A stretch of 64,000 nucleotides of DNA from Lingula anatina. Its lineage: Eukaryota > Animalia > Brachiopoda. A program made the translations under genes and the position numbers. Shown one piece after another: positions 7,504 to 57,803 of this stretch. Below the pieces are notes generated by a model, which saw only the letters and a list, made by a program, of their open reading frames with translations, had not been told where the DNA came from and did not search any database. The stretch lies in NCBI GenBank assembly GCA_051362555.1, contig CM120649.1, positions 10,974,001-11,038,000 on the forward strand, in the 5' to 3' direction. The stretch's first letter is position 1. Every line of letters begins with the position of its first letter.

Positions 7504-10500
7504 TTATGCTCTCGCGTTCTCTATTAGGGTCTCTAAAGAATGATCGGGGTTTCTAATTGTAGCTCCCACAAGTGCCATGAGTCGACTCATGAGGACGTGG
7601 ATTGTCTCATCATCCAGCAGATCGCAAGAACCCTGGAATTTAAGTTCAATGCGCTTCGGATGATCGGACTCGATGACTTCAAGTCTGGTTTCCCTGTAGA
7701 AATCTAACAAATAATGTTCTATGACAGCTCCTCCAAATAGGGCATTGTCTTCCTCAACCACGGCATTGTGGTAGTTAATGAGGTGCTTTCCAATGTTCGC
7801 AACTTGTTCCTGTGGCATTGTATCATAAATTAAGTCCGGAGGACAGAGAGCATTTTCAACACAGCATTTCTGAATTGTGCTCTTGTTGACTCTCAGGAAC
7901 TCTCGAAATGTTTGAGAGTGGTTGTCAAAGCGAACAGGAATAGGGAGAATGTTCACGCAATTCGTCATCACCCCTTCCAATCCCAGTGCAACACGCATGT
8001 CGACACTTCCTGATATGACAAATCGCTCAATGTTTGATGCAGCATGAAGCAAAAGTTGATAAACGCTACATATGAACTGAAAAAGTGTGAATTCCTCGCT
8101 GCTACGCCATCTTAACAAATGTATCATCATATCGTCGTCTATCTGCCCCGTTACAGTAACAGACTTTCCAAAAGTGCATTGTGGTAACACTTTTTTTGAG
8201 ACTCGCACAAGAGGAACTTCTTCCGGCAGATTGTTTTCCCAAAATACTTTTAATCTTGTCTTTTCTTCTTCTGTCAGATGACGATCTATTGCATCAGCTA
8301 AGCTGGGTATTGCGCTGACTTTACCCAAATGTGTTGTCAAAGGATTGCCTGCATGGACGCTACGCAGATAAGGAATGATATTATCCTGCAGCATTATCCT
8401 CATAGAATCAACATCCACCGCTATGTGATGGAACACAAATAACACCATTGGCGGTGTAGTGTTTACGAAGGCAACACGCCAAGGCGATTCGTTGGAACTG
8501 TTGAAAGGACGTCTCATAATCTCCTCTATACTTCGTTCCATGGAATCTTCAGTTCCGTCTATGAGCTGCACCTCCGGAGTATCATCTAAAAGAAACTCTA
8601 TCTTGTCTGTTCCTACTACAGCATTTCTTCTGTATCTCATCCTGAGGACTGGGTTATTTTCTGACACTAACTTTGTAATATTTTGCCAAAGCACAATGTC
8701 AGCAGCGTATCCCTGTTCTGGCAACCTGATTTTCACAATTAAGTGGTTTGCGAGATCTTCTTTTGTTCCCTGGCTGTTGTATTTCCATCGGTGTGTGAAG
8801 GCAGGTTTTTGAATAGACCTGTTAGGAGAATGTGGACTATGTTGCTGAACTCCATCCCCAATCAACTGTTCTATGAGGTCAGCAAATGTAGTTGGTTTTT
8901 GATCACTGCTCATGAGCACTGCGGGTATAAGGGAAACTTGGAATTGGTCCCTTACTTTGCGGATAAATGACATCATATTAAGAGAGTCAAAGCCCAGGTC
9001 ATTCAAAGATTGGTTTTCATCAATCTTACCGGGGCCCATCAGAATTCTCCCCGTCGTTCGCATCACCCAGTGTTTGATGTACTGTTTTCTGTCTTCACTT
9101 GACATATTTCTGATCTGTTCTATATTCAGAGTGACCTCTGCTGAATCGGCGTCATCATTTGAGTGGAAACTTTTGCTGTTGGTCTTGAAGGGAATGTCTG
9201 CGTACATGGCCTGTACATCATTGCGTAAAAGTGCATGGAGGAAACATTCCAATATGTCATCTTCATTTAATGCATTTATACCTTCATTTCTCAGTCTTTG
9301 CCCCGTATTTGGATTCTGATTTAGTAGGCCCAAATTTAGTGCACCCCAGTTGATGGACTGTGCAGGCAGATGCTGCTGTCTTCTGTAGTGAGCAAGGCTA
9401 TCCATGAATGCATTGCCGGCTCCGTAGTTTGTCTGGCCAGGGTTTCCCAGCAGTGATGCGACTGAGGAATGCATCACAAAGTAGTCGAGAGGAAGGTTGA
9501 TGGACAACTTGTGCAAGTTCCAGGAACCCTTTATTTTGGGACCTGTCGCTCTTTCAAATGTGTCTTGATTTTGATTTACAAAGGCACCATCGGCCAAAAC
9601 AGCAGCGCCATGAAAAATGCCTTTAATTGGGATTTTGCGTTGTGCAAGTCTTTCAAAAGCACTGGAAACTGAAGTGTAATTGGAAACATCAGCTTGCTCG
9701 TGAATAACCAGAACTTGGTGTTTGATTTCAAGATCTCGTCTCTCACGTAACTGATCTGGAGTTGGAGCAGAACGAGATATTGTAGCAATGACACCAACTT
9801 TATGTTTGGCTAAACACTTAGTGATAAGCTGACCTAGGCCTGTCAGACCGCCAATTACCACATAGCAAGAATCAGAACGAAACAGTCTGTTTTTGGAGGC
9901 AAACACATCTCCAGATGGTGGTACTGAAATGCTGTAAATTGCTTGGGTTTCCATGCAGACATCCACGATTGTATCTTCAACAGTGCTATTTCCAAATTCA
10001 AAACGTGCATTTGGTATCTTATTCATTGGCACAAATTGCTTCACTTCAGATTTCAGTGAAAGTTCTGCACTGAAAGCAGACAGCCACTCCACCGTCGTTG
10101 GCACCTTTGCTTTTAACTGATGCAGTGAGAACTCGTCTCGAATTGAGAAAGTCTTCTTTTTAGCATTTGGAAAATGTCTTCGAAGAGTCATGTATTCGTT
10201 GCCCTGAATAAATTCTTCAAAGACAAGAAGGCATTGTGCTTGGCTGAATAATTTCCCCAACTGGACAATTTCGGACCGGGTGATCTCAGTCATAACCAGA
10301 ACTGTCTGACATGGCTGGAGTGCATTATTCTTGGGTATGGCATGCCTGGAAAGACTTTCTAAATCGAAATTTGCAACACGGGCCATGTCTGTCAAGACCT
10401 GAACCAAAGGCAAGGTATCATCATTGTGTACAAGTATCAGGCGCTGACTTTTAGGTGATGCATTGTTGATACACCCAACTAGAATCTGTTTGGCAAGGTG

Positions 10501-13500
10501 AACAACAGGGAATAGTGGGACGACATCCCATGGAATGAGTCTGGACGAAATCACATATTCTTTTGGCACATGGACAACTGATTCAATTGGGGAAGGGCAA
10601 CAAATGAAAACTTCATCACCATTTGAAAGATCTGATTTCCCGTTAGTATCTGCAACTTTGCCGACCAAGGAGTATGAAATGACATCATGGTCAACTGACG
10701 GGGACATATACCAAAGATGACAAGGATTATCACTTTCTGAGCTGGTTGCAGGGGCACCTTTGATCTGATTAAGGAATGCATGGTGAACGTTTACTTTAAC
10801 ATCACCTGGGTCAATGAGCTTATTGTTGCATCTGGCTTGGTGCTGGAATCGCAGTTCGCTGTAACCATTTGGATCACTGGAGACAAGTCTCACAGGACAT
10901 CCTTCTTCAGCCACATTTTTTCGATATCTGGCATAGTTGAGATCCGTTGATGCCTTGGTTGGAGATGGTTTGTACACACTTTCTTCTTTAATCACAATTT
11001 CTGGGTGGCTTGCTACAAAGGAATCAGCATCTTCAAGGTAGCACCTGAGAGTTTCTGTCTCTTCAGGGGACCCAGAATAGAGATCAACAAGACTTATTTT
11101 CTCATATGTCTCCTCTTTTAAGAAGCATCTCACCATTCCCCAAAGCTGGGCACCAAATGGGGTAAAATGAGGTGATCCTTGAAAGTCGTGAAAACTCAGG
11201 CTTTGGCATGAAACTGTAAGGACGATGACGGGGATTGTAATTTGCATATCAATGAGAATCTTCATGAGAAGACGCAAACCTGTGCATGCTCTATGACATC
11301 CCTCAAACATTTTCTTTGTGTCCATTTTGACATCGTTGGCTGTTCTTGCTCCCCAAGCGTATATGATGTAATTTGGATCTTGCAAATAATTTGGAATGTT
11401 TCTTTCCATCCAATCTCCGAGTTCCCTTTCTCCGCTACATTCTGGAAAACCTATCCCACCCTCCTTCCACTGCACTGCACTATTCTTGTCCACCAAAACC
11501 AGCCCTTTACTTTGGTGTTTTGTCTTAGGCACATCTAGCTTTGCCCTGTGCCAGGTAAGATGACCAAGGAAATTCTCTGGTGTGTTCTTGCCGATCAATT
11601 TCATCACACAGTTCCGTAATTCTGCAATGATATCCCCTTTCATCGACAAAAGGAAGCAGTTGAAATGGGCTTTACCAGAACTGTGATGCATAATTCGACA
11701 GTAAGCCTTCATGATAGGGGAGGGCTTTTGCAGCACTCTTATGCTGCCAAGACTGATTGGGATCATTTTGGTATCTTGCCCTTGGTCATGCAATGGGCCT
11801 GAGCAGAAAACCCCTGCAGTTTGCAAGAGTGAATCTAGAACTGAAGGATGGATTGAAGTGCGGTACATATCTTCAATGATGCTCTGTGGAATTGCAAGTG
11901 TTGAGATGCATTCTTCTTTGTTCACTAAAAAGTTAGTAATAAATTTCATTGTCGGTCCATAATCAAACCCAGCGTGGTGTAGCCCATCGTAAATCTGGTC
12001 AACAGGCACATTTATCGTGCATCTGCTTTCAATGCCACGGATATCTGGTATAGAACTTTTTTGTACCTCATCCTCCCTCACAATTTCCCCTGCGGCATAT
12101 GTTTTCTTATCGTCCTTGATTGCAAAATGATAGATATCTTTTCCAATTTCACATGCCTCATTAAGCTCAAACACTACATGAACATCCATCTCACTGTCAC
12201 TGCTGACAAACAATGGCTCTACAAAATTGATCTGAACCAAGAAATATTCAGAAGGCCTGTTTGAAATCTCGGATACTGCAGTGAGAGCCACGTCTGCATA
12301 AAATGCACCAGGAACCACAATTCCTGCTCCTACCATAACATGGTCATAAATAAAAGGGGTTGAACTTTTATTCATGGTTACCACGTATTCTGGCTTGGAA
12401 CCTGGCATTCTTCGCATGTACGGATGAGACGAATGGCGCATGCCATATTGCTGCTCCCTTGCAGTACGCATGTGGACGATATTTGGTTTTGGGTCAAAAT
12501 GATGTCTAGGCTTGTCTCTTAGAGCCACTGGAATAGAAACAATTTTGTTCCACATTGGATTCACCCCTCTTTCGTACATCTCAGCTAATGAAAGAAGAAG
12601 GGGCTCTGCGCTCAGTCCCTTCTTCATAGATGGAAGCACAACCACGCCATTAGCATTTTCAAACTGATCAATGAAACGTCTAGAAACTGGTCTTGGACCA
12701 ATCTCCAACACAACGTTGGTGCACTCCTCCTGAAGCGCAGCTCCAATGGCCTCATTCAACAAAACAGGTTCTCTGACGTTCTCTCTCCAGTATGAACTAG
12801 GGACATGATCTTCTGTTTTCAAACATCTACCCGTCACCGTTGAGTATAATGCAATCTTTTGCGTCCTGTGCTTGACTTTGCGAGCGGACCCCAGTGTCAT
12901 ATCCTTAAGTTCAAGCTCAATATTCTGACCAGCAGCTTCCATGTGTTGAGAATGATAGGCAATATGGACGGGCAAGTCGATGGTATTCACATCGGCATAA
13001 TTTGGTTCACTGAGGATTTGTTTCAGTGAATTTATGTACGCAGGACTACCAGACACTGTATTTGACATGGGACTATTGGTAATTGCAATATCGACTTCCC
13101 CATTTAACCTATCTTGTAAAAGAGACCTAAGTCTATCAGTAGCAAAATTCTCTACTACCATCATGTGGCCCTTTCCTGCCTTTGACGCGTATTTTGTGCG
13201 TGTACAAATTATATGTGCTGCCTCTTCCAAGGACATGACACCTGCGCAGTAGAAAGCTGCCACTTCACCCACAGACTGACCAACAACAGCATGCGGTTCA
13301 ATGCCCCAGTGGCTCCACAATGCGACGAGACAAACCTGACAAGCAAATATCACTATTGGTTCGACTTCCGGATCAGACACATCTTTCTGTTCAACTAATT
13401 TATTTAAGACAGACCAACCTGTCTTGGGGGTTAGAATCTTGTCAATCTCTGACATTTTTGCCAAGAAGACATTGTCGAACATCAGCAACTGGTGACACAT

Positions 13501-14318
13501 TCCCTTCCATGTTGTTGCAACGCCAGAGAATAAGTAAATGACACGCACCTTTTTTCTCTCAGCATGAAACTGGTGTTTTAGACGCGAGGCGAGGTTGTCT
13601 TGAAGGTTTTGAACAGAGGTAGTGACCATTGCAAGCCGTACAGGATGGTGCGTCCTCCTGCATGTCGATGTATACATTAGCCTGTCAAGATCTTGATCCG
13701 TCAAACTTTTGATGGCAATATCATCTAATACTTCATTTGCAGAGCGTCTTAGGGAATTCACCGAGTTAGCAGAGAAGCAAATCACCTTATGGGGAAGAGG
13801 GGCACCAGAACCACCCAATCCAATGGCTAAGGAAGATCCATTCTGTTTGCGAATCTCGGCATCAAATTTGTTTAGAGGGGTGCTTACGGATGAATCAGAG
13901 TCCTTGGCAACAAAAGTTAATTCACTACGGGTGCTTGGAGCTTTTGGTAATTCAAACTGCTTCACGAATGCGGCAGCATTTGTTCCTCCGAATCCAAAAG
14001 AGTTAACAAATGCCATTCGTCTTTGGTCATTTGGACAATTCCATGATGTCATTTCTGTTGAAATTTTCAAGCCAAGGTCTTCAAATGGTATTTTTGGATT
14101 GGGTTTGCCATCTTTAAAGTGTAAGGAGGGCACAAAAAGACCATGTTTCATCATGAGAAGAACTTTGATCAGCCCTGCCACTCCAGCAGCTGATTCAAGG
14201 TGACCTATGTTCGTCTTCACGGAGCCTATAGTAATACTGGGCAATTGTCTCTTACCTCGTTCGAAAAACTGGCCGATTGAATTAGCCTCTGTCATATCTC
14301 CAACCTGGGTGCCGGTCC
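7504..14318 (-). CDS. PKS-A terminal 6.8-kb exon (KS C-terminus, AT, DH, psiER, KR, ACP, C domain)
   Basis: ORF 7504..14295 extended to the ttccag acceptor at 14318; stop TAA at 7504-7506. Confidence 0.95.
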
Positions 14319-15139
14319 CTGGAATAAAATCTTTTTTTGCCAGAAGTTGTGTATGGCATGTACATGTACCTATACATGTATCTTACACTTACAAACAAAT
14401 TACCAAAAAGGGCAAGATGCCCTAGATAGGATATCAAACTTGTCCCAAACAAATGCTTGGGCTAAGTGTCCTTTGGACGTACTACCAGGTTAGTAGGTAT
14501 AAAGTAATTTTTTCTACAGTCAACAGCTTCATACTGAAATAATTTTTAACCTCCAATATTTCGATAGTAGGAAGCAAAATATTACGTGACTTGGAGATGT
14601 TGTAGCCATTCATAAAAAAAAATATAGCAGCTGTTTCTAAATCTTTTTCTGTACTTTTAGAACATCAAACGCATTTGATAAGAGAAAATAACGGATGAAT
14701 GAACCTGACTTACCATGAGCCTCGACATACTGTATATCGTCGGGGTCAATGCCTTGTTTGTCTCTTAGCATTTTGAAAAGTGCCATCTGTTGGTCTTTTG
14801 AAGGACTGGTCATCGGGTGCGCGGTGGAACCGTCTTGATTCACGACCGATGACACCAAGCCCCAAATATTGTCATTGTTCTCCAGAGCCTGGGTGAATAA
14901 AACCAAAAAGTTAAACACAATCAAGTGAAGCGAAACATAATATTCATAAGACAGTTGACAAGTTTGCTTGGCAAGACTCAGGGAGTATAGACCTAATTAT
15001 GGTAGAGCAAGTGATCGTGATTGGTTGTATGCTCTTCAGACTTAAACTAGCTTCAGACTTAAACAGATCCATAAAGACCAGGCGTAAAAATAATTGCAAA
15101 GCCAGAAAAATCAGTTTTTGATAAAGTTGTAGCCTTAAT

Positions 15140-15188
<49 letters not shown>

Positions 15189-17849
15189 GGGGGGGGGCAC
15201 ATGCCTTATCCAGTTCCAGACATGACTGTAATAATGCTGCTTGAGGAAATAAACTGAACTTGAATAAGTTATCATAACTGAACATTTCACTTACGTCTTT
15301 CAGTCGTTTTAACACTACAATTCCACACCCCTCTCCGCGGGCATATCCGTCAGCTTCGGCTGTGAAAGCCTTACATTGGCCTGTCGGGGACACCATTCCT
15401 GACTTGCTAAGTGCAATATTAGCATACGGATTTAAAAAGCAGCTAACTCCCCCGCACACCACCATGTCGCAGTCTCCTGTAAGGTATGGATTATGGTTTA
15501 ACTGTGTGGGTTTACGGGGTGGGGTCACGTGCGTACCCTCTGCACGTATGCTTTGGTATGCTACAAGGTTATGTTTACTATGGGCATACAATTTTAATTA
15601 AAATCAGAACTTTCCTTCCTTACTTACTTAAGTTTTGATTTTGCGTAAATCGGCTGCCTATTAATTTAAATATACACCACATCAATACGTTTTAACTGAA
15701 AAGTATGTATATACAACCAGTTTTAATGGGGTATACCAGCTCTGGGGGTCTGCCGCTTGATGGCCTGTAAGTCCTAAATCTCGCGTAATCTCGAACGCGG
15801 TTTCACACCATCCTTCATCACGGATATTGTAAACACGCATCGCTGAATGCAAGTTATGCCCCTATTTCACACAGACCACGAATCCCACGAATCGCCAGGA
15901 ATTGACAAATTTCAGGATTCGTGAGGATTCATGAGATTTTGCCAATTTTCTGGTCTAATTCGACACGTTCTACGATTCAGTTACGATACAGGTGCGATAG
16001 TGTTACGAATATTCGTGGGATGCGGCTGGAGTCGTGAGATTTTGCCAATTTTCTGCTCTAATTCGACACGCTCTACGATTCAGTTACGATACAGGTGCGA
16101 TAGTGTTACGAATATTCGTGGGATTCGGCTGGAATCGCACGAATATTGTCCAGAAAGTCACTACGATTTTTTGGAAGCGGGAGTTCGTGGCCGAAATTTT
16201 GAACAGCTCAAAATTTTTGCCACGAGTTCCCGATTGATCAAGAATTGCAAGAACTGACTACGAAAGAAAGAACTGACGATTATATACGAATATGTTAAGA
16301 ACTCCACGAACTGTTTACGATTCTGAATACTGATACTGAAATTTTCGATTCCTGGCGATTCGTGGGATTCGTGGTCTGTGTGAAATAGGGGCATCAAAGT
16401 TTTTGTCCCTAATTCCTGTTTGTCAAGAAGTGCAAGAACTGACTACGAATATATACGAATCTGTTAAGTACTTCACGCACTGATTACGATTCAACCACGA
16501 ATCCTGAAATTTGTCAATTCATGGCCATTCGTGGGATTATTGGTCTGTGTGAAATAGGGGCATTAACCGAACGCGTTTCCGTGACAACGAGAAGCATTTG
16601 AAAATTATTTTTTTTCTTTTTACATCGTTCATGAATAATACGGTTACTTGCTATTTTTTTAAAAATCATTTGTGCAGGTGTATGTGTGCATGAAATCTGA
16701 TAATGTTTTTATTTGCATTGGTATGCTACGCTCAAATTTGGGTTATGTCGTCGCTGTATACATACATGTATATCACTGTCAGTGGAAATAAATATGGATA
16801 TATAATTGCCGATATAAAGGAAATCTGTTTAATTGACTTTTTAAATTAATTTCTGTTGACGTATCTAAAATGAATGAATACGACGTGAAATATGCCAACA
16901 ACATAAACTTGCATACCTTTGATCAAATATGTTGTCTCATCTCCAATTTGATGTGCCTTTTTTTACAAATAATCACCTCACATGTGTAAAGTGCTGTAAA
17001 CCGTGTTTATTATTCCAGAAACCATATCAAACATTATAAATGGTATACAAATACAAAATACTGGTAAAAGTATCTATATTTTATACCATTTATTTTGATT
17101 TATAGAGTGTTCCCTCTAAAATCCGATGTTCCACTGCAGAGAAGAAACAAACAAACAAAAAAAAAAATGTTTATGATGTTGAAGACGAATACCATTTTTA
17201 ATGGCATGTGTAGCATATACAGAATTAAGAGAAAAAATATCTGCATGTGAATAATCCTACTAAAGAAAGTTTTTTTTAAAGATGCATACAAAGTCAATTT
17301 TTTTGTCATAAAAACCAAACAAATGCTAGCATATAGTTTCAAGTAGTATAACTAAGGGAATTACCAAAATGCATTGTTTAATTTACCCGAAAATGATGTT
17401 TGAATGGATTTTTCTGCTAGCATTCTATGCTGTATGTCAATGGGCCAGAAAAGTAGGTCACGAAAGTAGGTTAAATTTCCGACCAAACATTTAAAGAAAG
17501 AAGCAGTCTAAAGCTCTTTTATGGCTGATTGAGTGATCTATTCAGTTTTTCCCTTGGCATGTCAAATTTATTTGAGTCGTATAAGAAACTAGTAGAAGTG
17601 GTGTACATATGTTACTGGGAATACACATTCCACCGATGCTCGGTTCGTATGTACCTTTAAGATAAATTACCACAAAAGACACAAATTTAATCTCTAGTCT
17701 AGCTGCTTATATATTTAATGCTTTTATTTGGATCACTGACAAAAATGAATAATCCTTAATACTTCTAATGGACTTTACTATTATTATTATTTTTATTTTT
17801 ATTATTACTATTATGTACTATGGGCCGGAGGCCTTGAAAAACTGAATAA

Positions 17850-17901
<52 letters not shown>

Positions 17902-18708
17902 GAAACAACACCCTTATAATCTGGACCAACTCCTTTATGGTCTTTAGGAAGAATGGGACTATATCCCACAAAACAAAACTATAACGCTGTTGGAGGCATA
18001 CCGTGCAGCCTAGGTGAGAAAATTTTCGTGCGCAGTAAACACACGCGCTATTAGACACGTGTGTAAATTTGGTGTCTTTTGCTGGTGTCTTTTTAATTTA
18101 ATGGACATTTGTTTACCTTTGTTGAAGTCCTTATAGAAAATCAGATTTGAGGGGACACATATATAGCTTCAAACAAATATTATTAAATCACTTATAAAAT
18201 GTTATAAAATATTATAAAAGCATCTTCACCGATATTTAATTTTTTCTGTACCATAATTTTGATATGTAACTATTATCTGGAATAAAAAGCATAGTGTAAA
18301 AAAGTTTACAGATATGAGGTGATGATAAATAAATAAAAGCAAGCGGAATGGGAGTTTATTAAGATTTGGCAAGATTTAAATCCACAGGTACAGATATTTT
18401 TAGATTATGAAATCGCATAGATTAATTACGTCTCTTATAAAGGCATTTTAATTGTAATTATGAAAGAAGACCTCAAGTGTAACTTCTCAACATAATATCA
18501 AAGCAAATCAGCACAAACGAATATTTTTTACCTGAAAATTATTATTTTTACAAAATTTTGTCCCATTTGACCTTGAAATATAGATGAAAAGTCAAATCTA
18601 TGGTCATATTTTAAATCACGACACATGACTTTTGGTCCGACCTCTTTAGTAACTTTTCCATGATTCCTTCGGTTTGGGAGATATTTAGCTTTTACTATTC
18701 AAAATATA

Positions 18709-18762
<54 letters not shown>

Positions 18763-19912
18763 AGAGTACATTTTGGGAAAATGGTCCGATCAAGCCGATT
18801 GTCAAACAAGAATGCCCTCATACTATCTTTTCACCGTATGTGGAACGCCATCACTTCGCAAACGTTACAGAACTTTTAACTTCACGCATGGAGGCAACAG
18901 GTGGGTTCTCCAACCGAGAAGATACTGTGCAAAATACTAAAAGGTGGCTTTAATTTTGTACTATGGTTAGTTTATTCATTGGTTTTACAATCAGTAATTT
19001 TTTGTGAAGAGCATTCTTTTAGGAGTTGAATAAAAACATTATGGTTTATGACATTATTTTTTGTATCACTTTATGCATTACGTTAGGGTGAAACATTTTT
19101 GGTAGGGGAGTATTTCAAAGCAATTCCTACATCACATGCTATGCGCAGTTGTACAACATTGGGCGTATACAAACGGTTTCTCCTGTATGCTTTGTATAAA
19201 TCCTTGCGTATCCTTACCGTTTTGTAAAGCATTTGAAGCCGCATTTATGGCAACTAGTGACGAGGAACAGGCAGTGTCTATGGTCATAGAGGGACCTCGA
19301 AGACCAAAGACATACGAAACCCTGGCTGAGAGTATGCTACTTGACACTCCGGTCACTGAGTACTCATTTATGGCTGCAAGATCTTGCATGATGTCTTTGA
19401 AACCATCGTTCATGCTACCTGAATAGTTTGGGGAGATATAAAATGGTCAGTTAGTTTCATTTGGTCATAATACAAGTTAAAAGATCGTTTTGCAGCGGTA
19501 CCACATTCACTACTCCAGCGGCTGCCACATATACTGTAACATCGAAATATTGACTGAAAAAATTGACTTATATTTTGATTACATAATTGAACATTGTTAT
19601 ATTGCCATATGATCAGAAAATGTTACAATTTAAGTTATTGGAAAGTTCGGCGTACAGCAACTTTGGGTGTTAATAAAACGGGGGGAATGGAAAATATTGA
19701 TGTATTCAGTTACACTATACCTATGTATACGCCTGTGTTGCTATCACGGACGGTTTCAAGCGGAATCCCAGCATTTTCAAGTGCCATATAGCAGCAGTCC
19801 AGAACCCATCTCTGCTGGGGGTCCATGCGCTGTGCTTCCTCATCATTTATGCCGTACATATCATTATCAAACCACTCATAACTGGGGGAAAAGAGGATAA
19901 AAGACTTACAAA

Positions 19913-19981
<69 letters not shown>

Positions 19982-20346: not shown

Positions 20347-21270
20347 TGACTCCTTAATGTTAAAAAAAAAAAATAAATAAAAAAGATAACTGCTACAGCA
20401 ACACATGAATAGTAGTGCGCAATGGTTTTTGTTTCTGTAAAATATCTTTTCCAACAATCATAGATCATTTAATTTTCTCACCGTCTGTTTACATAAAAAG
20501 GCTTCATTCATAAATGCACACGTTAATGATAAAATTAGTGCTATCTGTCATTTGGAAAGAAAACCGTTTTTTTTTGTGTCAAATTGAATCCAATACTCTC
20601 AAATGTGTGGAAAATTACCAGGTACATGTATGGAAATTTTACAAGGCAAAACATCTCAGCTGCAACAGCAGACAATACTCTTTGGTTCAACGGTCACAAA
20701 TTTACAATACGTACAGGGCCCCGTAACTGCATAACTGCTCAAGCACTGCCACTTGAGCCAAAAATGTCGACAATAATAACTGCGGCCCTGGTAGAGGATA
20801 CCGATAGTGCGTATTGCCAGCGTACCGAGTCTTATAAACAACCAATAATTAACAGCACTTAAATCTTGTCTTGTACTCCCCACAGGGATAGATCGATCTA
20901 AAATCTATGGGAATGGGGTCTTAAAGAAGGTCTTAATACACTCTCAAATAAAAACAGGCCGCATAAGATAATTTAAATGGCTTTAAAAGTTACATATATC
21001 GTTTTTATGAGCCAAAATCAAAAAAGGACCTTATTTAAGGATTTTGCTGCACCCCCTTCAGGCAAAGGGTTTATGATTGATTCTTCTAGTTAAGAACCTG
21101 AATTTTTCATTTCTGCTTGTCTCCGACTTGAAAAAGTAACCGTCTGTACCGGAAACAAGCAAAATCCAAGATGTTTACTTAATGTATAGTGAATGTCTTG
21201 TGCTTGTGTGTGTGTGTGTGTGTGTGTTTGCATATGTATTTTTGTTTGTCTTTTGTGAATACAGTAAAAA

Positions 21271-35140: not shown

Positions 35141-35159
35141 TATACCTTCTATATGTACA

Positions 35160-42295: not shown

Positions 42296-42333
42296 TTAAC
42301 CGATCAAGCTTATTTTCGAACTTGATCTATATA

Positions 42334-44720: not shown

Positions 44721-44795
44721 TTAAGGGGTGGTGTTACACTCTTGACACGTATTCGCTTTAAGGGGTGGTGTTACACTCTTGACACGTATTCGCTC
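44721..44795. repeat. ~38-bp tandem duplication
   Basis: ttaaggggtggtgttacactcttgacacgtattcgct occurs twice. Confidence 0.85.
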
Positions 44796-45855: not shown

Positions 45856-46154
45856 GGGCCATTCAGAATAGATCCGATAATCAACTGGTCCAAGGATCAA
45901 ATATGGCGGACCCTACATGAAAGGAAGAACGCTTAATCTTGTAATGGTCTCTCCGCCTCTCACACGCCTCCCCATGCGTCCGGTCGAATGGAGCCGAGGT
46001 TTAATTACTGTGCCCCTGCAGGGATGACGCTTGGGGAGGCGCGTGAGAAGTGAAGAGACCAATACAAGATTAAGCGGTCTTCCTTTCATGTAAGGTCCGC
46101 CATATTTGATCCTTGGGGCAGTTGATACTCGGTTCTTTCATTCTGAATGGCCCC
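45856..46154. mobile_element. Palindromic MITE ~200 bp upstream of the putative PKS-B first exon
   Basis: gggccattcagaat ... attctgaatggcccc with ~120-bp complementary arms; related fragment at ~2263-2406. Confidence 0.75.
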
Positions 46155-46385
46155 AATGTGAGAATAACAATTATATATTAACTTTTAAATAATTTTCAAC
46201 CGTAATTGTTGCGTAGCTCCGCGGGATATGTAGACACAGGAATAAAGAAATGAAATGTTCACTCTTCTACATATAATGTGATATAATTTGTCACAAAACT
46301 GGCTTGAAATATTGGTAAAGCTACACAAAACACAATATCTATTTTTTCAGATTTCAGAGGCAACCTGAGCAGCAACGGGATATTC

Positions 46386-46421
46386 ATGGAAACGGACCGA
46401 CTCCTAAGAGACGTTTATACA
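46386..46421 (+). CDS. Putative PKS-B start-codon exon ([12 protein letters not shown])
   Basis: Strong acceptor ttttttcag at 46350, ATG at 46386, gtaagt donor at 46422. Its phase 0 joins in frame to GAC TCA ACG at 48236, where the paralogous ATG is ACG. Confidence 0.55.
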
Positions 46422-49400
46422 GTAAGTTATATTAAGATGTTTTAAAATAGACTTTTCACAAGTTTCACTAAAAGATTCATATCTATAAACAAGTAATCGG
46501 TGTGTACTCCAATACTACAAATATTGTTTGTCCGTCTTTTAGTCCTTGAATTTAGAAGCTTACAAGCGTTAGCTCTACACATAACTTTTAAGAACTTAGA
46601 ATTTGCTTACGTAATTCAAATTGTGTCTATTCAATCATGTAAAAAGTACTGAAACTTTCAAAATTCAGAGATGGACACTGATATACTATATAGCCGAGGT
46701 AATACAGAAAACAAATACTTTCAACGACCCAAGAAACACAAAATAATCCTTGCAGAAGAAAATGAACAAGTAAAGAGGATAGAACTTGACAACATGGTAG
46801 ATATTAACACATTACTTGAATAAATATAATATTTATACACTGTATATACTCTCCTTTCAACTGAGTATGAAAATGCATGATACGTTTTCAACATTACATC
46901 TCTTCTGCATGCAAGTGCTTCAGGGTATATGCTTTTTAACATGGTCGTTTCTGAGCTGTTTCGCTTTCATCACTAGTGTTGTTTTGTAAAACTTTGCTGG
47001 GTGTCATACTGGGCCGGTGAGACCGGAATTCAGGTCATCTTCTCCTATATGGACCTCGGTGTCCAGTAACTGTAGCCAGTATTTCTGTCATAAATATGGG
47101 TAAAATTTTTATTCCTGGCGGACCTGAATCCTGTTGACATAAGTCAGTGTAATGAAGGTTCACTCTTTTTATCATGTCCGACCCATTATACATGAAATAG
47201 CAACGTAAATACTACTGTCAGCAATGTATATGCATTTATTGTCGTTTAACGGTTCAACGATGACCTGTCTTAGGAGGAAGGGCATTTGAGAGTTATACAG
47301 ACGGTGAACAGATCTTGTGAGAAGGGGAAAGATCATTCGAGGTCGATCAGCGCTGCTGTACAGACACTGGTTCTCCACTTTATTCCTTATAAAATTATTT
47401 TGTATAAATACAGTTGTATGAAAAAATTGGTTTTCTTAGGTGTTGTAAAGTTATCTGATTTATATAAGTAAGAACTGTACCAGAATTGGAATTGGAATTG
47501 GACTGTGCGGGAGATCTAACTCTTATGACTGGTGACGGAGCAAAGGCTTTATGTGAGGCACATCGACTCCTTGCTAATTATTAATAAATAATGTTGATGT
47601 TTGAAGATGAAGTGGTTTTAGTCGTTGAGAGTAATTAGACGATAAATAATTTATATACGTTGAAGCATTAACGAATTAGAATATAACATTTTTAGTAAGC
47701 ACATGCAATTGCTTCGTACAATCACCAATTTGCCCACTCTTTGGCATGGTTGTTATAGGCGTTGCAATTATGTACTTGTGTGATGTATACAGAACTACGT
47801 TGGTTAACACTTCCAGAAAGTATTGATGTATACTAGATGTGATTTGCCTTCATTTTTTATGCTTCTGTCATGTTTGATTGGACTTCTTATTTTGGTACGT
47901 TGAAAATTTGTGTGATCCCTTTACGCCCCCCGCCAATACTCCCCCGCATTGATACTTCCCCGCACCGCTACTGCCCATACCGATCCAGCATACGGCTTTC
48001 CCCAAAATCGACATGCAACAATCGCTTAGTTGAAATTTTCTTCATGCGCACAGGCATTCTAATTTGGATATAAATACAAACGAACATTAGGCGAAATGAC
48101 TTACCTTTTAGAGCAAATTATGTCTGATCTACTGGTCTCTCTCCCTGTATCCGACATTGGACCAAGAACCATGGCACACTACATTCCATGTGTTGCTGTA
48201 CTGTAGCAGTTATTCTCTTGTTTACCTTTATTTAGGACTCAACGGAGGATCGAAATGCTATAGCCATTGTCGGCGTAGGGTGTCGTTTTCCCGGCGCAGA
48301 TAATTTAGACGGTTTTTGGAAAGTGTTGTGCAATGGCGAAAATCACGTGGTGGACATCCCCAAAGATCGTTGGGATAATGACCTGTACTATGATTCTGAT
48401 CGGCTCTCGACCGGGAAGACATGCATCAAAAAGGCTGGATTCATCAAAAAGTAACTTAACTTTACAAAAGCAGTGGCTTAATTGCTATGCTGTTTGTGTC
48501 AGTTACATGTTCTCATAATTATATGTACATGTGAACTAGCTGTATTTCTCAAACGAAATAATAAAAGCATAATATCTTTACGTTACTACTTTGCTTTCTC
48601 ATTCCACAAAATTGGATACGAAAGTTGCATTTTATCTTTCTAACATCATTTCATATGCAGTATTTTAATCCAAATCTTAGCCTAAATCTGGGCCCTAGAT
48701 GTCTTCAATCCTTTTTCCAGTTATGAGTGGTTTGACAATGACGTGTACGGCATAAATGATGAAGAAGCAAAACGCATGGACCCCCAGCAGAGATGGGTTC
48801 TGGACTGCTGCTATATGGCACTTGAAAATGCTGGGATTCCGCTTGAAACCGTCCGTGATAGCAACACAGGCGTATACATAGGTATAATACAAATTATATA
48901 TCACGCTTTTTTCCATCCACCTGTTTTATAAACACCCGGATGCATGGATCTTTAAAGTTGGAATTGTAATAAATCTTGCTCATATAGCATAATAACAATG
49001 TTCAATCATGTAATCAAAAATTTAAGTCAATTCTGTAGGCAATAATGTTTATCCATTGCTATAGTTTGTACATAGCCAATCCGAGCAGCCGCTGAAGTAC
49101 ATGTATGTGGAACGCTTTGAAACGTGCGTTTTGAATAATGACCAAACGAAACCAAGTAAACATTTGACATCTCCCTAAACTATTAAGGTAGCATGAACGA
49201 TGATTTCAAGGACCTCATGCAAGATCCTGAAACCATGAACGAATACTCAGTGACTGGAGCGTCAAGCAGCATCCTATCAGCCAGGGTTTCGTATGTCTTT
49301 GGCCTTCGAGGCCCCTCCATGACCATAGACACTGCCTGTTCCTCGTCACTAGTTGCCATAAATGCGGCTTCAAATGCTTTACAAAGCGGTAGGGTACATC

Positions 49401-52400
49401 CAGTATACGCACAGTGTGGGAAAATTATACATAAATGACGGAGTATATGATTACGATGTTAGATATTATGATACATGTATATGAGTATATGATATACGTA
49501 TATGACGTATGAGTTTTTTTTGAAAACGTACATATATCAGAATGGTTCATATATCCATTGTGCATTTAAATTATATTTTGTTATGAAGATTTATATACGC
49601 ACTTATGAATTGAAATTGTTTGTATACATACTTTCAACTAAAAGCTGTTTTTAAATATCCATATTTGTACGTAACTAATTTACGCATCAAATCTAATGCA
49701 AATTTGGAAAGCTTTCAAAAAGTAGATGGCCGCTTGTACCTTTACCATGTTCTACCATTCATTACACTACAACAAATACTGCATGGGAGTACACAAGAAC
49801 CTCCTCGTCCCCCAACACATACTCACACCAACACAGTTGAACCATAATATTTACATTAAAGGAGACTGCGACATGGTGTTGTGTGGAGGAGTTAGCTGCA
49901 TTTTGAACCCGTACGCTCATATTGCACTTAGCAAGTCAGGAATGGTGTCCCCGACAGGCCAATGTAAGGCGTTTACCGCCGAAGCTGACGGATATGCCCG
50001 CGGAGAGGGATGTGGGATTGTAGTGTTAAAAAGACTGAAAGACGTAAGTGAAATGTTCAGTTATAATGGCATATCCAGTTTCAGTATATATCATCAAGCA
50101 GCATTATAAAAGTCGGCTGTGGCACAGGATAAAGCATGTGCCCCCTCCCCCAATAAAGTTTGGCGCTAAACGGATCTGGTATTTTCTGTCTTTGAATTCT
50201 TTTTATGTCTGGTATTTATAGACATTGTTTCATATTACCCAAAAAATTATATTCAAACAAATTTTTGCTTGCTTTTTGTGTTGTATGTATTTGGGGCAGA
50301 TAAGAAGTTAATTCACATAAGAAGTCCAAATTCAACCAAATATTTGAAAGAGTACATTTATGGCTGATTGAGTGATTTTTTCCCTTGGCATGTCTTCTTT
50401 ATTTGAGTTACATCGGAAACTATAATGGAAGTGGTTTATATGCGTTTTTGGGAATCCACACTCCAACGACATTCGGTTCAGGGGTGTTATGTCATTTTGT
50501 GTATTTTCACCAGGCTCTGGAGAACAATGACAATATTTGGGCCCTGGTGTCATCGGTCGTGAATCAAGACGGTTCCACCGCGCACCCGATGACCAGCCCC
50601 TCAAAAGATCAACAAATGGCATTATTCAGAAAGTTAAAAGACAAACAAAGCATTGACCCCGATGATGTACAGTATGTTGAGGCTCATGGTAAGTGGTGTT
50701 CATTCATCCCGCTTATTAAAAAACGGCCACTGTTATATCTTTTATTGACTATACTTGATGCTCTCAAAACGATGATAACATTTTTAAATGGATACTTGAT
50801 TTTTTCTGAACGGCTACACCACCACAATTCACTTAAAATTTTGCTTCCTACGCACCTGTTAGTACGTTCAAAGGACCCCATCCACTTGCATATGTTTGGG
50901 ATTTTATATATACGTAATCTTCCGCTTCTTGGTGATCAATATGTATGTAAATCCAAAGCTACATGTTATATACATCGCCAGGTAAACACATTTTTTTCAG
51001 GAACAGGCACCCAGGTTGGAGATTTCACCGAGGCTAATTCAATAGGCCAGTTTTTTGAACGAGGTAAGAGACAATTGCCCAGTATAACTATAGGCTCCGT
51101 GAAGACAAACATAGGTCACCTTGAATCAGCTGCTGGAGTGGCAGGGCTGATCAAAGTTCTTCTCATGATGAAACATGGTCTTTTTGTCCCCTCCTTACAC
51201 TTCAAAGATGGCAAACCCAATCCAAAAATACCATTTAAAGACCTTGGCTTGAGAGTTTCAACAGAAATGACATCATGGAATTTCCCAAATGACCAAAGAC
51301 GAATGGCATTTGTTAACTCTTTTGGATTCGGAGGAACAAATGCTGCCGCTCTCGTGAAGCAATTTGAATTACCTGAAGCACCCAGCACCTGTAATGAATT
51401 AGCTTTTGTTGCCAAGGACTCTGATCCACCCCTAAATACCCCTGGTACCGAGGTTTGCAAACAAAATGGATCTTCGTCAGCCATTGGATTAGGTATCACA
51501 GGCGCCTCAATTCCCCATAAGGTGATTTGCATCTCTGCCAACTCGGTGGGTTCCCTGAGACGCTCTGCAAATGAAATCATAGATGATATTACCAACAAAT
51601 GCTTGACAGATCAGGACCTTGACATGCTTATGTATACGTCTACATGCAGAAGGACGCACCATCGTGTTCGGCTCGCAACAGTCACCACTTCTGTTAAAGA
51701 CCTTCGGGACAAGCTCTCATCATGCTTAAAACGACAGTTTCATGTTGAAAGAAAGAAGGTGCGGGTCATATACTTATTCTCTGGCGTTGCAACAACATGG
51801 AAGGGAATGTGTCACCAGCTGCTGATGTTCGACAAAGTCTTTTCAGCAAAAATGTCAGAGATTGACAAGATTCTAACCCCCAAGACAGGTTGGTCTGTCT
51901 TGAATAAATTAGTTGATCAGGAAGATGTGTCTGATCCAGAAGTCGAACCAATAGTGATATTTGCTTGTCAGGTTTGTCTCGTCGCATTGTGGCGCCACTG
52001 GGGCATTGAACCGCATGCTGTTGTTGGTCAGTCTGTTGGTGAAGTGGCAGCTTTCTACTGCGCAGGTGTCATGTCCTTGGAAGAGGCAGCACATATAATT
52101 TGCACACGCACAAAACATGTGTCAAAAGCGGGAAAAGGTCAAATGATGGTAGTAGAGAATTTTGCTACTGAAAAACTTAAGCCTCTTTTACAAAATAAGT
52201 TCAATGGGGCAGTCGAAATTTCCATTTTCAATAGTCTCATGTCAAATACAGTGTCTGGTAGTCCCGAGCATATAAGAACTTTGAAAGAAATTCTCGGGGA
52301 ACAACATTATACTGCTGTGAATACCATCGACTTGCCTGTTCATATTGCCTATCATTCTCAACACATGGAAGCTGCTGGCCAAAACATTGCGTTTGAACTT

Positions 52401-55400
52401 AAGGATATGACATTGGGAACGGCTCACAAAGACATGCGCAATACGCAAAATATTGCATTATACTCAACGGTAACGGGAAGATGTTTGGAAACAGATGATC
52501 ACGTCCCTAGTTCATACTGGAGAGAGAATGTCAGATGCCCTGTTTTGATGAGTGAGGCCATTGGAGCTGCGCTTCAGGAGGAATGCACCAACGTTGTGTT
52601 GGAGATTGGTCCAAGACCAGTTTTTGGACGTTTCATTGATCAGTTTGAAAATGCTAATGGCGTTGTTGTGCTTCAATCTATGAAGAAGGGACTGAGTGCA
52701 GAGCCCCTTCTTCTTTCATTAGCTGAGATGTACGAAAAAGGGGTGAATCCATTGTGGAACAAAATCGTTTCTATTCCAGTGGCTTTACGACAAAAGCCTA
52801 GACATCATTTTGACTCAAAAGCAAATATCATCCACACGCGTACTGCAAGGGAGCGTCAATATGGAATGCACCACTCTTCCCACCCGTACATAAGACGAAT
52901 GCCAGGCCCCTCTCCAGAATACGTGGCAACCATAAATAAAAAATCAACCCCTTTTATTTATGACCATGTTATGGTAGGAGCCGGAATTGTGGTTCCTGCC
53001 GCATTTTATGTAGACGTGGCTCTCACTGCAGTATCCGAGCTCTCAAACAGGCCCCCTGAATTTTTCTTGCTTCAGATTAATTTTTTGGAACCATTGTTTG
53101 TCAGCCGTGACAGTGAGCTGGATGTTCATGTAGTTTTTGAGTTTGATGAGGCACATAAAATAGGAAAAGATGTTTATCCTGTTGCAATCAAGGACAATAA
53201 GAAAACATTTGCTGAAGGAAAAATTGTTAGGAAAGATGACATACCGAAAAGGACCATGCTTGATATATGTGATATTGAAAGCAGATGCACAACAAATTTG
53301 CCTGTTGACCAGATTTACGATGGACTGCATTACGCTGGGTTTCATTATGGATCATCAATGAAATGTATCACTGACTTTTTAGTGGCCAGAGATGAATGCA
53401 TCTCAGCATTTGAAATCCCCCAGCATATCATTGAAGATATGTACCGCACTTCAATCCACCCTTCAGTTCTAGATTCAGTCATGCAAACTGTAGGGGTGCT
53501 CTGCTCAGATCCATTGAATGACCAAAGACAAGTAACCAAAATAATCCCAGTTAGCATTGGCAGCATATCAGTGCTTCAAAAGCCCTCCACAACCATGAAA
53601 GCCTACTGTCGAATGATGTGCCACAGATTGGGTAAAGCCCATTTCAACTGCTCCCTTTTGTCAGTGAATGGGGATGTCATTGCTGAATTGCGGAACTGTG
53701 TGATGAAATTGTTTGGCAAGAACACACCAGAGAATTTCCTTGGTCACCTTACCTGGGACAAGGTAAATTCAGACAGGCCTTATGCAAAACACCAGAGTAA
53801 AGGCATAGTTTTTATCGACAGGAACAGTGCAGTGGCGTGGATGGAAGGTGGGCTAAGTTTTCCAGAATGCAGTGAAGAGGAGGAGCTCAAAAACTGGATG
53901 GAAAGAAACCTTTCAAGTCGTCTGCAACATTCAAAATACATAGTGTATGCTTGGGGAGCAAAAACAACCAGCGATGACGAAATGGACACACAGGAAATGT
54001 TTGAGGGATGTCAGAGAGCATGCACAGGTTTGCGTCTTCTCATGAAGATTCTCATTGAAATGCAAATTACGATCCCCGTCATCGTCCTTACAGTTTCATG
54101 CCAAAGCATCAGTTTCCAAGATTTTCAGGGAACACCTCATTTTAGCCCATTTGGTGCCCAGCTATGGGGAATGGTGAGATGCTTCTTAAAAGAGGAGACA
54201 TATGAAAAGATAAGTCTCGTTGATCTCTTTTCTGGATCCCCTGTTGAGACAGAAACACTCAGGTGCTACCTCGAAGATCCTGATTCCTTCGTAGAAAACC
54301 ACCCTGAAATTGTGATTAAAGAAGACAGTGTGTACAAACCATCTCTAACCAAGGCAATGACGGATCTCAACTATGCCAGATATCGAAAAAATGTGGCTGA
54401 AGAAGGATGTCCTGTGAGACTTGTCTCCAGTGATCCAAATGGTTACAGTGAACTGCGATTCCAGCACCAAGCCAGATGCAACAATGAGCCCATTGACCCA
54501 GGTGATGTTAAAGTGGACGTTCATCATGCATTCCTTCATCAGATCAAAGGTACCCCTGCAACCATCTCAGAATATGATAATCCTTGTCATCTTCGGTATA
54601 TGTCCCAGTCAGGCGACCATGGCGTCATTTCATACACTTTGGTTGGTAAAGTTGCAGATGACAACAGGAAATCAGATCTTTCGAATGGTGATGAGATTTT
54701 CACTTGTTGTCTTTCCCCAGTTGAGTCCTTTGTCCATGTGCCAAAAGAATGTGTGGTTTTGTCCAGACTCATTCCACGGGATGTGGTCCCAATATTCCCT
54801 GTTGTCCACCTTGCCAAACAGATTTTAGATTGGTGTATCAAACATGCGTTCCCTGGGAGACAGTGTCTGATACTGGTACACAATGATGATAATTCACCTT
54901 TGGTTCAGGTCTTGACAGACATGGCCCGTGTTGCAAAATTTAATATAGAAAGCCTGTCCAAACATGCCTTATCCAAGAGCGTCGGCCTGCAGTCATGTCA
55001 GACAGTTCTGGTTATGACTGAGATCACCCGGTCTGAAATTGTCCAGTTAGGGAAAGTATTCAGCCAAGCACAATGTCTTCTATTCTTTGAAGAATTTATT
55101 CAGAGCAACAAATACCGGGCTCTTCAAAGATCTTTTCCAAATGCCCAGAAGAAGAGATTCTCAATTTATGATCAGTTGTTAATGCATCAGTTAAGGGCAA
55201 AGGTACCAATGACAGTGGAGTGGCTTTGTACTTACAGTGCAGACCTAGCACTGAACTACGAACTGAAGCAATTTGTGCTGACGAATCAGTCACCAAATAT
55301 GCGTTTTGAATTTGGAAATGAAACTGTGGCAGATACAGTCATGGATGTCTGCATGGAAACCCAATCAATTTACAGCATTTCAACTACACAATCTGGAGAT

Positions 55401-57803
55401 GTGTTTGCCCCAAAGAACAGACTGTTTCGTTCTGATTCCTGTTATGTGGTTATTGGTGGCCTGACGGGCCTAGGTCGGCTTATCACTGAGTGTTTAGCCA
55501 AACACAAAGCTGGTGTCATTGCTACAATATCTCGTTCTGTTCCATCTCCAGATCAGTTACGTGAGAGACAAGATCTCGAAATCAAACACCATGTTACAAT
55601 TGTCCACGAGCAAGCTGATGTTTCCAATTACACTTCAATTTCCAGTGCTTTTGAAAGACTTGCACAACGTGGAATCCCAATAAAAGGCATTTTTCATGGC
55701 GCTGCTGTTTTGGCTGATGGAGCCTGTTTAGATCAAAATCAAGATTCATTTGGAAGATCAACAGGTCCCAAAATCAAGGGTTCATGGAACTTGCACAAGT
55801 TGTCCATAAACCTTCCTCTCGACTACTTTGTAATGCATTCCTCAGTCACATCACTGCTGGGAAACCCTGGCCAGACAAACTACGGAGCCGGCAATGCGTT
55901 CATGGACAGCCTTGCTCACTATAGAAGACAGTGCCATCTGCCTGCACAGGCCATCAACTGGGGCGCTCTGAACTTGGGTCTTCTAAAACAGAACCCAAAT
56001 ACAGAACAGAGACTAAGAAAAGAAGGGATAAATCCATTAAATGAAGAAGACATATTGGAATGTTTTCTCCATGCACTTCTGTGCAATGATGTACAGGCCA
56101 TGTACGCAGATATTCCCTTCAAGATCAACAACAAAAGTACCTCCTCAACTGATGACACTGATTCAGCAGAGGACACTCTGAATATGGAGCAGATCAGAGA
56201 TTTACCAAGTGGAGACAGAAAACAGTACATCAAACACTGGGTGATGCGAACGGCAGGAACTATTCTGATGGCTCCCAATGAGGTGGATGAAAACCAATCT
56301 TTGAATGATTTGGGTTTTGACTCTCTTAATATGATGTCATTCATTCGCAATGTAAGGGACCAATTCCAAGTTTCTCTTACACCCGCAATGGTGATGAACA
56401 GTGATCAAAAACCAACTACATTTGCTGACCTCATTGAAAGATTGATTGGAGTTGGATTTCAACGACATAGTCCACATTCGCCTGACAGCCGCATCCAAAA
56501 GCCAGCCTTCACACACCAATCTATATTCAACATTCAGGGAACAAAAGAAGACCTCGCAAACCACATTATTGTAGAAATCAGGTTGCCAGAACCGAGTCTT
56601 GCTGCTGACATTGTGCTTTGGCAAAATATGACAAGGATGTTGTCAGAAAAAAACCCCACCCTTAGGATGAGATACAGAAGAAGTGGTGGGCTAAAAACAG
56701 ACAATATAGAGTTTCTTTTGGATGATCCTCCAGAGGTGCAGCGCATAGACGGAACGGAAGACTCAATGAAGCAAAGTATAAAGGATATTAAGAGGTGTGC
56801 TTTCGACAGTTCCAAAGAATCCCCTTGGCGTGTTGCCTTCGTAAACACCACACCGCCAGTTGTGTTACTTGTGTTTCACCACATAGCGGTAGATGTGGAT
56901 TCTATGAGGATAATGTTCCAAGAAAATGTTCTTCCTTATCTGCGTAATGCCTCGGCAGGCATTCCTTTGGCAAAACATTTGGGTAAAATCAGCGCAATAC
57001 CTAGCTTAGCTGATGCCTTAGATCGCCATCTGACCGAAGAAGAAAAGGCTAGATTAAAATCATTTTGGAGAAATATTCTGCCTAAAAGAGTACCTCTGGT
57101 GCAAGTCTCAAACAAAGCAGTACCTGAATGCACTTTTGGCAAGTCTCTAACTGTAGAGGGGCAGATAGGCGGCGATTTGATCGAGGATTTATTCAGATGG
57201 CGTGATAGCGATGAATTCACCCCTTTTCAGTTCATATGTAGCATTTATCAACTTTTACTTCATGCTACATCACAAATTGGAGGGTTTGTCATATCCGCCA
57301 GTGTCAACATGCGTGTCGCACTAGGAATGGAAGGAGTGATGACGAATTGTGAGAACATTCTGCCTATTCCAGTTCACTTTGAGAGCCATTCTCAAACATT
57401 CAGGGAGTTTCTGAAAACCAACAAGAACATTATTCGTGAATGCTGTGTCGAAAATGCCATTTGTCCTCCGGAGCTAATATATGATGAAATGCCCCAAGAA
57501 CAAGTTGCAAACATTGGAAAGCATCTCATTATCTACCACAGAGCAGTGATTGAGGAAGACGAGACCCATTTAGGAGGAGCTGAAATAAAGCATCATTTGT
57601 TTAAATTCTACAGGGAAACCAAACTTGAAGTCATCGAGTCTGATCATCCGAAGGGCCTTGAACTTAAATTCCAAGGTTCTTGCGATTTGCTGGATGGTGA
57701 GACGATCCGCGTCCTCATGAGGCGACTCATGGCACTAGTGGAAGCTACAATTAGAAACCCCGATCATACTATAGAGACCCTAATAGAGAACGCGAGAGCA
57801 TAA
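46386..57803 (+). CDS. PKS-B: spliced iterative type I polyketide synthase, KS-AT-DH-psiER-KR-ACP-C (about 2590 aa), paralog of PKS-A
   Basis: Hand-spliced exons 46386-46421 (putative), 48236-48450, 48721-48881, 49188-49388, 49862-50043, 50514-50688 and 51001-57803. Introns are GT-AG and join into a 7773-nt frame. Same catalytic motifs as PKS-A ([52 protein letters not shown]). Confidence 0.92.
48236..48450 (+). CDS. PKS-B KS exon ([21 protein letters not shown]...), 215 nt
   Basis: tttag acceptor and gtaact donor; homologous to 20352-20138. Confidence 0.92.
48721..48881 (+). CDS. PKS-B KS exon (MDPQQR), 161 nt
   Basis: ttccag acceptor and gtataa donor. Confidence 0.92.
49188..49388 (+). 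CDS. PKS-B KS exon with catalytic Cys (DTACSSS), 201 nt
   Basis: ttaag acceptor and gtaggg donor. Confidence 0.93.
49862..50043 (+). CDS. PKS-B KS exon (ADGYARGEG), 182 nt
   Basis: aaag acceptor and gtaagt donor. Confidence 0.92.
50514..50688 (+). CDS. PKS-B KS exon (...YVEAHG), 175 nt
   Basis: ccag acceptor and gtaagt donor. Confidence 0.92.
51001..57803 (+). CDS. PKS-B terminal 6.8-kb exon (KS C-terminus, AT, DH, psiER, KR, ACP, C domain)
   Basis: tttttttcag acceptor ending at 51000; uninterrupted frame to TAA at 57803; collinear with the PKS-A terminal exon. Confidence 0.95.

Follow-up and report, generated by a model that had tools for sequence, protein, structure and literature searches.

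How does a finished chain leave an animal polyketide synthase (PKS) that has no thioesterase (TE)? The relevant passages of two studies leave this release mechanism open (PMC10764717; PMC6334511), and a pair of genes from the brachiopod Lingula anatina bears on it. The genes, here named gene A and gene B, lie head to head in a stretch of 64,000 nucleotides (assembly GCA_051362555.1, contig CM120649.1, forward-strand positions 10,974,001 to 11,038,000; hereafter the window, numbered from its first letter). Both encode type I PKSs with the domain order KS-AT-DH-psiKR-psiER-KR-ACP-C, i.e. ketosynthase, acyltransferase, dehydratase, pseudo-ketoreductase, pseudo-enoylreductase, ketoreductase, acyl carrier protein and condensation domain. 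A first-pass annotation of the window, made from the letters alone, had proposed an undescribed biosynthetic system. This proposal did not survive: PKS-C proteins have been described from molluscs (PMC10764717) and PKS-C(-A) proteins from lancelets and acorn worms (PMC4604110), and the Lingula genes themselves are present in RefSeq. The pair adds a brachiopod to an animal PKS-C group that has been reported before but is functionally uncharacterised, and the architecture is not new. With it the PKS-C design is known from brachiopods as well as molluscs, and the occurrence of this design in both phyla points to an origin before they split. The HHxxxD motif is intact and there are two natural variants; among the PKS-C proteins sampled, the Lingula pair is also the most tractable one in which to test release by the C domain.

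Six-frame translation of the window yields two very long frames, 7507–14382 on the minus strand and 50376–57800 on the plus strand, and the stop codons of the two PKS genes are at 7504 (gene A) and 57803 (gene B). Gene A occupies the minus strand and has six coding exons from its ATG at 20346 to the stop at 7504. The KS is encoded from exon 1 (20138–20352; acceptor at 20352, KS N-terminus) through exon 2 (19721–19881), exon 3 (19218–19418; catalytic Cys codon at 19269), exon 4 (15295–15476, preceded by a 3.7-kb intron) and exon 5 (14714–14888; first His at 14717) into exon 6 (7504–14318; 6815 nt), which holds the end of the KS, the AT, DH, psiKR, psiER, KR, ACP and C domains and the stop. Gene B, on the plus strand, has six exons homologous to these at 48236–57803, namely exon 2 (48236–48450; KS N-terminus), exon 3 (48721–48881), exon 4 (49188–49388; catalytic Cys codon at 49337), exon 5 (49862–50043) and exon 6 (50514–50688; first His at 50685), all encoding KS, and exon 7 (51001–57803; 6803 nt), with the end of the KS and the same series of domains up to the stop. 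The homologous coding exons measure 215, 161, 201, 182, 175 and ~6800 nt in both genes. The introns are few and N-terminal, within the KS-coding part, and all 11 are GT-AG with junctions read from the sequence. Gene B has ACG (48242–48244) where gene A has its start ATG, and its start is predicted to be supplied by a first coding exon of 42 codons at 46671–46796, placed by homology (tblastn with the RefSeq model, 36 of 41 residues identical; GT donor in phase). The predicted gene B protein, including this exon, has 2620 amino acids. The spliced frames of both genes are open, each with a single terminal stop. A further candidate small exon upstream of gene B, near 46352–46422, was read by eye. 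Intron 3 of gene A (15477–19217) has 3741 nt where its gene B counterpart has 473, and it contains, at 15856–16563, a 103-nt tandem repeat element whose short ends are inverted.

Are these genuine and distinct brachiopod genes? The top database relatives are Lingula anatina RefSeq proteins (LOC106179436 being added by cluster look-up): the identity is 99.1% between gene A and LOC106179436 and 94.8% between gene B and LOC106151792. Given this near-identity, the window is a brachiopod locus with matching genes already in RefSeq as 'uncharacterized'. Genes A and B are 80.6% identical to each other, with a synonymous divergence (dS) of 0.285, a nonsynonymous divergence (dN) of 0.101 and a dN/dS of 0.36, and their introns and 3' flanks are 69–78% identical. 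The dN/dS ratio between them is 0.16 for KS, 0.36 for AT, 0.42 for DH, 0.43 for psiKR, 0.48 for psiER, 0.21 for KR, 0.29 for ACP and 0.40 for C (bootstrap 0.28–0.55, p 9e-9); it is below 1 in eight of eight regions, each with p below 1e-3, indicating purifying selection on every domain. An artefactual origin, whether by bacterial contamination, as a haplotype duplicate or through decaying pseudogenes, might be argued from the resemblance of the C domains and the KS to bacterial ones and from the mosaic relation of gene B to RefSeq. It is nevertheless largely refuted and extremely improbable. A bacterial contaminant was rejected on the 11 GT-AG introns, and both gene types are present in an independent assembly. 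A haplotype duplicate was likewise rejected, as the dS and the introns (~74% identical) place the copies far beyond the heterozygosity of 1.6% reported for L. anatina (PMC4595640). The dS, the diverged introns and flank and the dN/dS below 1 together exclude both allelic duplication and long-dead pseudogenes. The first-pass annotation had described two intact, intron-containing, head-to-head type I PKS genes that are eukaryotic and nuclear rather than bacterial, with both copies maintained in frame, and the introns, the open spliced frames, the RefSeq Lingula matches and the dN/dS agree with it on each count.

The mosaic relation itself is as follows. Gene B is 98–100% identical to LOC106151792 over residues 1–1700 and 77–97% identical beyond, and a comparison of LOC106161238 with gene A gives roughly the reverse (84–100% before, 98–100% after). 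The diverged part of gene B is KR-ACP-C (window 55300–57800). This pattern suggests exchange of KR-ACP-C among paralogues, or alternatively a chimeric assembly in one genome.

What chemistry could the domains support? Pfam identifies KS, AT, DH, KR, PP-binding and Condensation in both spliced proteins and gives no match to ER, methyltransferase (MT) or TE in either gene; together with a psiER placed by profile alignment, these calls reproduce the order KS-AT-DH-psiER-KR-ACP-C of the first-pass annotation. The KS Cys-His-His, the AT Ser and Arg, the DH His-Asp, the KR NADPH motif and Tyr and the ACP Ser are all intact. In exon 6 of gene A the AT Ser, DH His, DH Asp, KR Tyr and ACP Ser are at 13275, 12342, 11835, 9426 and 8985, and in exon 7 of gene B at 52032, 52965, 53472, 55881 and 56322, respectively. 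The AT motif is AYHS, with GQS at the active Ser. The KR reads LAD where the B-type LDD motif sits. The psiER (approximately 54462–55364 in gene B) aligns over its length with bacterial ERs (hhalign probability 100, using a profile of 17 bacterial ER regions, those of the 28 picked that had the motif), and its glycine-rich NADPH loop is replaced, being lost near 54873 in gene B. An ER fold with this loop replaced identifies a true psiER, and an active ER was rejected on the loss of the loop. The AlphaFold model of the DH-KR region (pLDDT, the predicted local distance difference test score, of 81.9) finds its best match in 5bp4, a MAS-like DH-ER-KR structure (E 1e-61, 953 residues aligned), with a root-mean-square deviation of 12.8 because the domains are arranged differently. 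As 5bp4 lacks an MT, this match implies that there is no MT insert, and an MT domain was rejected on this match and the lack of a Pfam MT hit. No adenylation (A) domain follows C: the open reading frames (ORFs) stop after C, and tblastn with 13 nonribosomal peptide synthetase (NRPS) proteins gave no match outside the PKS genes in the window. A downstream adenylation exon was rejected, no A-domain remnant being found in the window with the 13 queries; the A and T domains that follow C in a PKS-NRPS hybrid are absent from the Lingula genes.

To which lineage does the KS belong? A KS phylogeny, which the first-pass annotation had named as a check, was run on a set of 120 proteins, 106 of them with a near-complete KS; the quick maximum-likelihood tree took in 34 animal KSs, the two from the window and 36 of the 72 prokaryote ones, and contained no fungal or fatty-acid synthase (FAS) rows. 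All 36 animal rows fall on one side, apart from the bacterial PKSs, with a Shimodaira–Hasegawa-like approximate likelihood-ratio (SH-aLRT) support of 100. The tree places the KSs of genes A and B in the animal PKS clade, whose vertebrate members in the tree are enzymes from fish and marsupials, MuPKS, ApPKS and OlPKS lying outside the tree. Within the clade the Lingula KSs are sister to the mollusc KSs (SH-aLRT 89) and the A/B duplication is confined to Lingula. The position of the last intron is apparently common to several mollusc-type contig ORFs. Against solved structures the scores are 563 bits for mycobacterial Mas, 369 for mammalian FAS, 314 for EcPKS1 and 283 for EcPKS2, and a separate Lingula protein is given as its FAS (Lin et al. 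2024, PMC10764717). This ranking of similarities and the distinct Lingula FAS argue against membership of the KS in FAS or the animal FAS-like PKSs (AFPKs). Animal FAS and EcPKS1/2 have the type I iterative layout in common with the Lingula PKSs, which are unlike them in having no TE, no psiMT, a dead ER and a lower similarity to them than to Mas. FAS identity was rejected on the missing terminal TE, the dead ER and the separate Lingula FAS, in keeping with the first-pass annotation, which had set the genes apart from FAS.

The C domain lies at 7507–8760 in gene A (second His at 8427, Asp at 8415) and at 56547–57800 in gene B (second His at 56880, Asp at 56892), and is ~74% identical between the two. 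Its model (pLDDT 81.7) has the full two-lobed fold, with a template-modelling (TM) score of ~0.8 against NRPS C domains over the full length. In all Lingula copies the motif reads HHIAVD, a complete HHxxxD, and the 12 residues around it are identical in gene A, gene B and the three RefSeq proteins aligned. Elsewhere in the animal PKS clade the complete motif occurs in none of 19 C-domain tails, the Asp being kept in all 19 and the second His in two, with Pro in its place in four; these tails are not independent, five being unionid and four abalone (sources are Sinanodonta, Potamilus, Pinctada, Saccostrea, Haliotis and six further records, one of which clusters with Mytilus). A hidden Markov model of the 19 tails scores the Lingula C domains at 163–165 bits and bacterial C domains at no more than 95, and a tree puts 22 animal-clade and 25 bacterial C domains on opposite sides (SH-aLRT 100, with warnings of long branches). 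By these comparisons the Lingula C domain shares its origin with the mollusc PKS C domains, and a single origin before the mollusc–brachiopod split would be the simplest reading. Besides the two Lingula proteins, a search with the C region against full-length proteins returned only 11 weak matches, to NRPSs or PKSs; it missed the mollusc C domains, which came to light on direct comparison. The protein atlas matches to the C domain are bacterial condensation clusters only. A full-length C tail is absent from 27 of 46 animal-clade relatives, one of which is a truncated Lingula model. Condensation does not appear in the precomputed Pfam lists of eight pearl oyster, abalone and oyster PKSs (P0009, P0018, P0021, P0022, P0025, P0053, P0055 and P0060) that have a divergent C-like tail, and the PKS-C design is therefore likely to be under-counted. 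Some bivalve PKS-C proteins carry an extra segment after the C domain (P0006, P0007, P0010, P0019 and P0025), which in P0006 weakly resembles a PH domain (E 0.15) and is possibly a membrane-targeting tail.

Several known systems can be set beside the Lingula pair. The mollusc PKS clade includes forms with and without C domains and has few, N-terminal introns (Lin et al. 2024, PMC10764717); its 'clade6' example is KS-AT-DH-KR-ACP-C with a degenerate C motif (PMC10764717, supplement file 5). Mollusc and Lingula proteins are alike in this domain order, in a length of ~2500 amino acids, in the GQS of the AT and in introns confined to the KS, and the feature that marks the mollusc type, a C domain after ACP with no A domain, is found in Lingula. 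The Lingula proteins differ in their brachiopod host and in a complete rather than degenerate HHxxxD, at an overall identity of ~26–30%. The vertebrate PKSs (budgerigar MuPKS, duck ApPKS and medaka OlPKS) have the core KS-AT-DH-psiER-KR-ACP in common with Lingula, without MT or TE, but end at the ACP (~2100 amino acids) with no release domain, whereas Lingula adds C. The budgerigar PKS makes C14–C18 polyenes because its ER is inactive, and the same source describes the vertebrate members as having no release domain (Sabatini et al. 2018, PMC6334511); the medaka PKS yields an extractable substance on which the nucleation of otoliths depends (Hojo et al. 2015, PMC4604110). The closest functional model is the fungal PKS-C TwmB (wortmanamide), which ends in C, has no A domain and yields an N-acyl amide; it is cited as a PKS with an active C domain (Hai and Tang 2018, as cited in PMC11731387), the title cited being on long-chain N-acyl amides. 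TwmB is unlike the Lingula proteins in being a fungal highly reducing PKS with Pro for the second His, and the two are likely to be independent in origin. Lancelet and acorn-worm genes tabulated as KS-AT-DH-KR-ACP-C-AMP (Hojo et al. 2015, PMC4604110 Table 2) also place C after the PKS, but most carry an A domain, which Lingula lacks. Neither a characterised product for any animal PKS ending in C nor a paper on Lingula PKSs was found in the literature searched, in which subscription journals are poorly covered. PKSs are unmentioned in the Lingula genome paper and one of its supplements, and two Lingula LOC numbers are absent from the 11 files searched among the 18 supplement files of Lin et al. 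(2024), the others of which may contain Lingula PKSs.

What, then, might genes A and B make? From the domain content, the most reasonable prediction for their product is a polyene or lipid conjugate. The reading that we favour, with a probability of roughly 0.45, is an iterative polyene synthase that would build a linear, unmethylated chain, which the C domain would pass to a small amine or alcohol, so that it leaves as an amide or ester. Like that of the duck enzyme, the AT would load units of acetyl and malonyl; KR and DH would act in each round, the dead ER leaving the double bond, to give a psittacofulvin-like polyene acyl-ACP; and the C domain would, as reported for TwmB, use this acyl-ACP as its donor and a free nucleophile as its acceptor, the amine or alcohol in the present case. 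A number of observations weigh against such a synthase. The AYHS/GQS motif of the AT is no textbook specificity code, and for the AT of a mollusc relative antiSMASH is inconclusive with a methylmalonyl consensus (PMC10764717, supplement file 5). The DH active-site loop (52965–52995 in gene B; 12342–12312 in gene A) has a one-residue insertion seen only in the four Lingula rows among 48 aligned. The residue after the Asp of the C-domain motif is Val, the canonical one being Gly. The second His is generally catalytic in C domains, and TwmB works with Pro there (Ji et al. 2024, PMC11731387); its loss in 17 of the 19 non-Lingula tails suggests that the clade as a whole may retain the C domain for something other than catalysis. 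Purifying selection on C is no proof of catalysis, since the presumed-dead psiER is similarly constrained. The products of these enzymes have also been described as not predictable, with a trans-acting ER possible (PMC6334511).

One alternative retains the polyene and gives the C domain a structural, programming or hydrolytic role, the chain leaving as a free acid or aldehyde or via a separate enzyme. The fold matches include the C domain of monacolin K synthase, which has a non-condensing role; none of the 19 other tails has the complete motif, the Asp being their one invariant residue, and more than half of the animal-clade relatives counted above dispense with a full-length C tail. Fish and bird enzymes, moreover, work without a C domain (PMC6334511; PMC4604110). 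All Lingula copies nevertheless keep both His residues and the Asp, in a surrounding stretch that does not vary between paralogues, and this alternative appears rather unlikely. The C domain might instead condense the polyketide with an amino acid held on a separate A-T protein, the genes being split remnants of an animal PKS-NRPS hybrid. Such a partnership would accord with the lancelet and acorn-worm C-AMP genes (PMC4604110 Table 2), with a fold and motif that are those of NRPS C domains and with the animal-encoded NRPS modules of molluscs (PMC11869996), and is judged highly unlikely. Given a trans-acting ER or programmed skipping, the product could also be an acyl conjugate that is saturated or reduced in part, and would then be a lipid for signalling or mineralisation rather than a pigment; it is with this core that the medaka enzyme produces its otolith nucleation substance (PMC4604110), and PMC6334511 leaves room for a trans ER. 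Neither an ER gene nor an A or T partner was recognised in the 64-kb window (Pfam scan, and NRPS tblastn for A domains), which counts against both of these alternatives. Against the reduced lipid it also stands that, in the literature consulted, no product structure other than a polyene is reported for a close relative and that Lingula mineralises phosphate, not carbonate (PMC4595640); we consider it quite unlikely.

If the favoured polyene conjugate is made, a pigment role in shell or mantle would be the leading guess by analogy, and it is the weakest step of the argument. Mollusc shells widely contain unmethylated polyenes (bioRxiv 2023.05.17.541181), and in pearl mussels coloured mantle has raised levels of pks transcripts, for which the authors favour naphthoquinones (PMC12652611). 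A broader conjecture, which we regard as unlikely, is that spiralian PKS-C proteins are the source of unmethylated polyene shell and mantle pigments, the Lingula form being ancestral and catalytically complete, with C-domain release as amide or ester and KR-ACP-C swapping diversifying the products.

How did the pair come to face each other? Self-comparison pairs 6858–14497, inverted, with 50847–58417 at 84%, together with upstream exon blocks. As the two genes are 26–28 kb apart with repeats between them, the layout reflects inverted duplication and not a compact bidirectional pair, and a shared compact promoter was rejected on the same repeat-rich distance. The head-to-head layout is a young inverted duplication. 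Of the duplicated secondary-metabolism locus proposed by the first-pass annotation, the duplication stands, while no sign of pathway clustering is seen. Its statement that no other host gene is recognisable in the 64 kb agrees with a Pfam scan at curated cut-offs of frames from among the 131 stop-to-stop frames of at least 66 amino acids outside the two big exons, a scan that short-exon genes would escape: only KS exons and one reverse-transcriptase fragment passed, no further host gene was recognised, and the window has no Rfam matches.

The spacer between the genes (20432–46670) is repeat-rich, with a tandem duplication, reverse-transcriptase fragments and inverted-repeat elements. The two copies of the ~4.8-kb tandem duplication (29351–34217 and 35156–39983) are 90–93% identical, and broken RVT_1 frames lie between them on the minus strand (34191–35167). 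Elements with terminal inverted repeats or long hairpins occur at 25140–26063 (nested in 24896–26346), 42331–43922 and 45870–46136; they are likely to be non-autonomous DNA transposons. In the 3' flank of gene B there is a 367-nt tandem duplication at 58218–58938.

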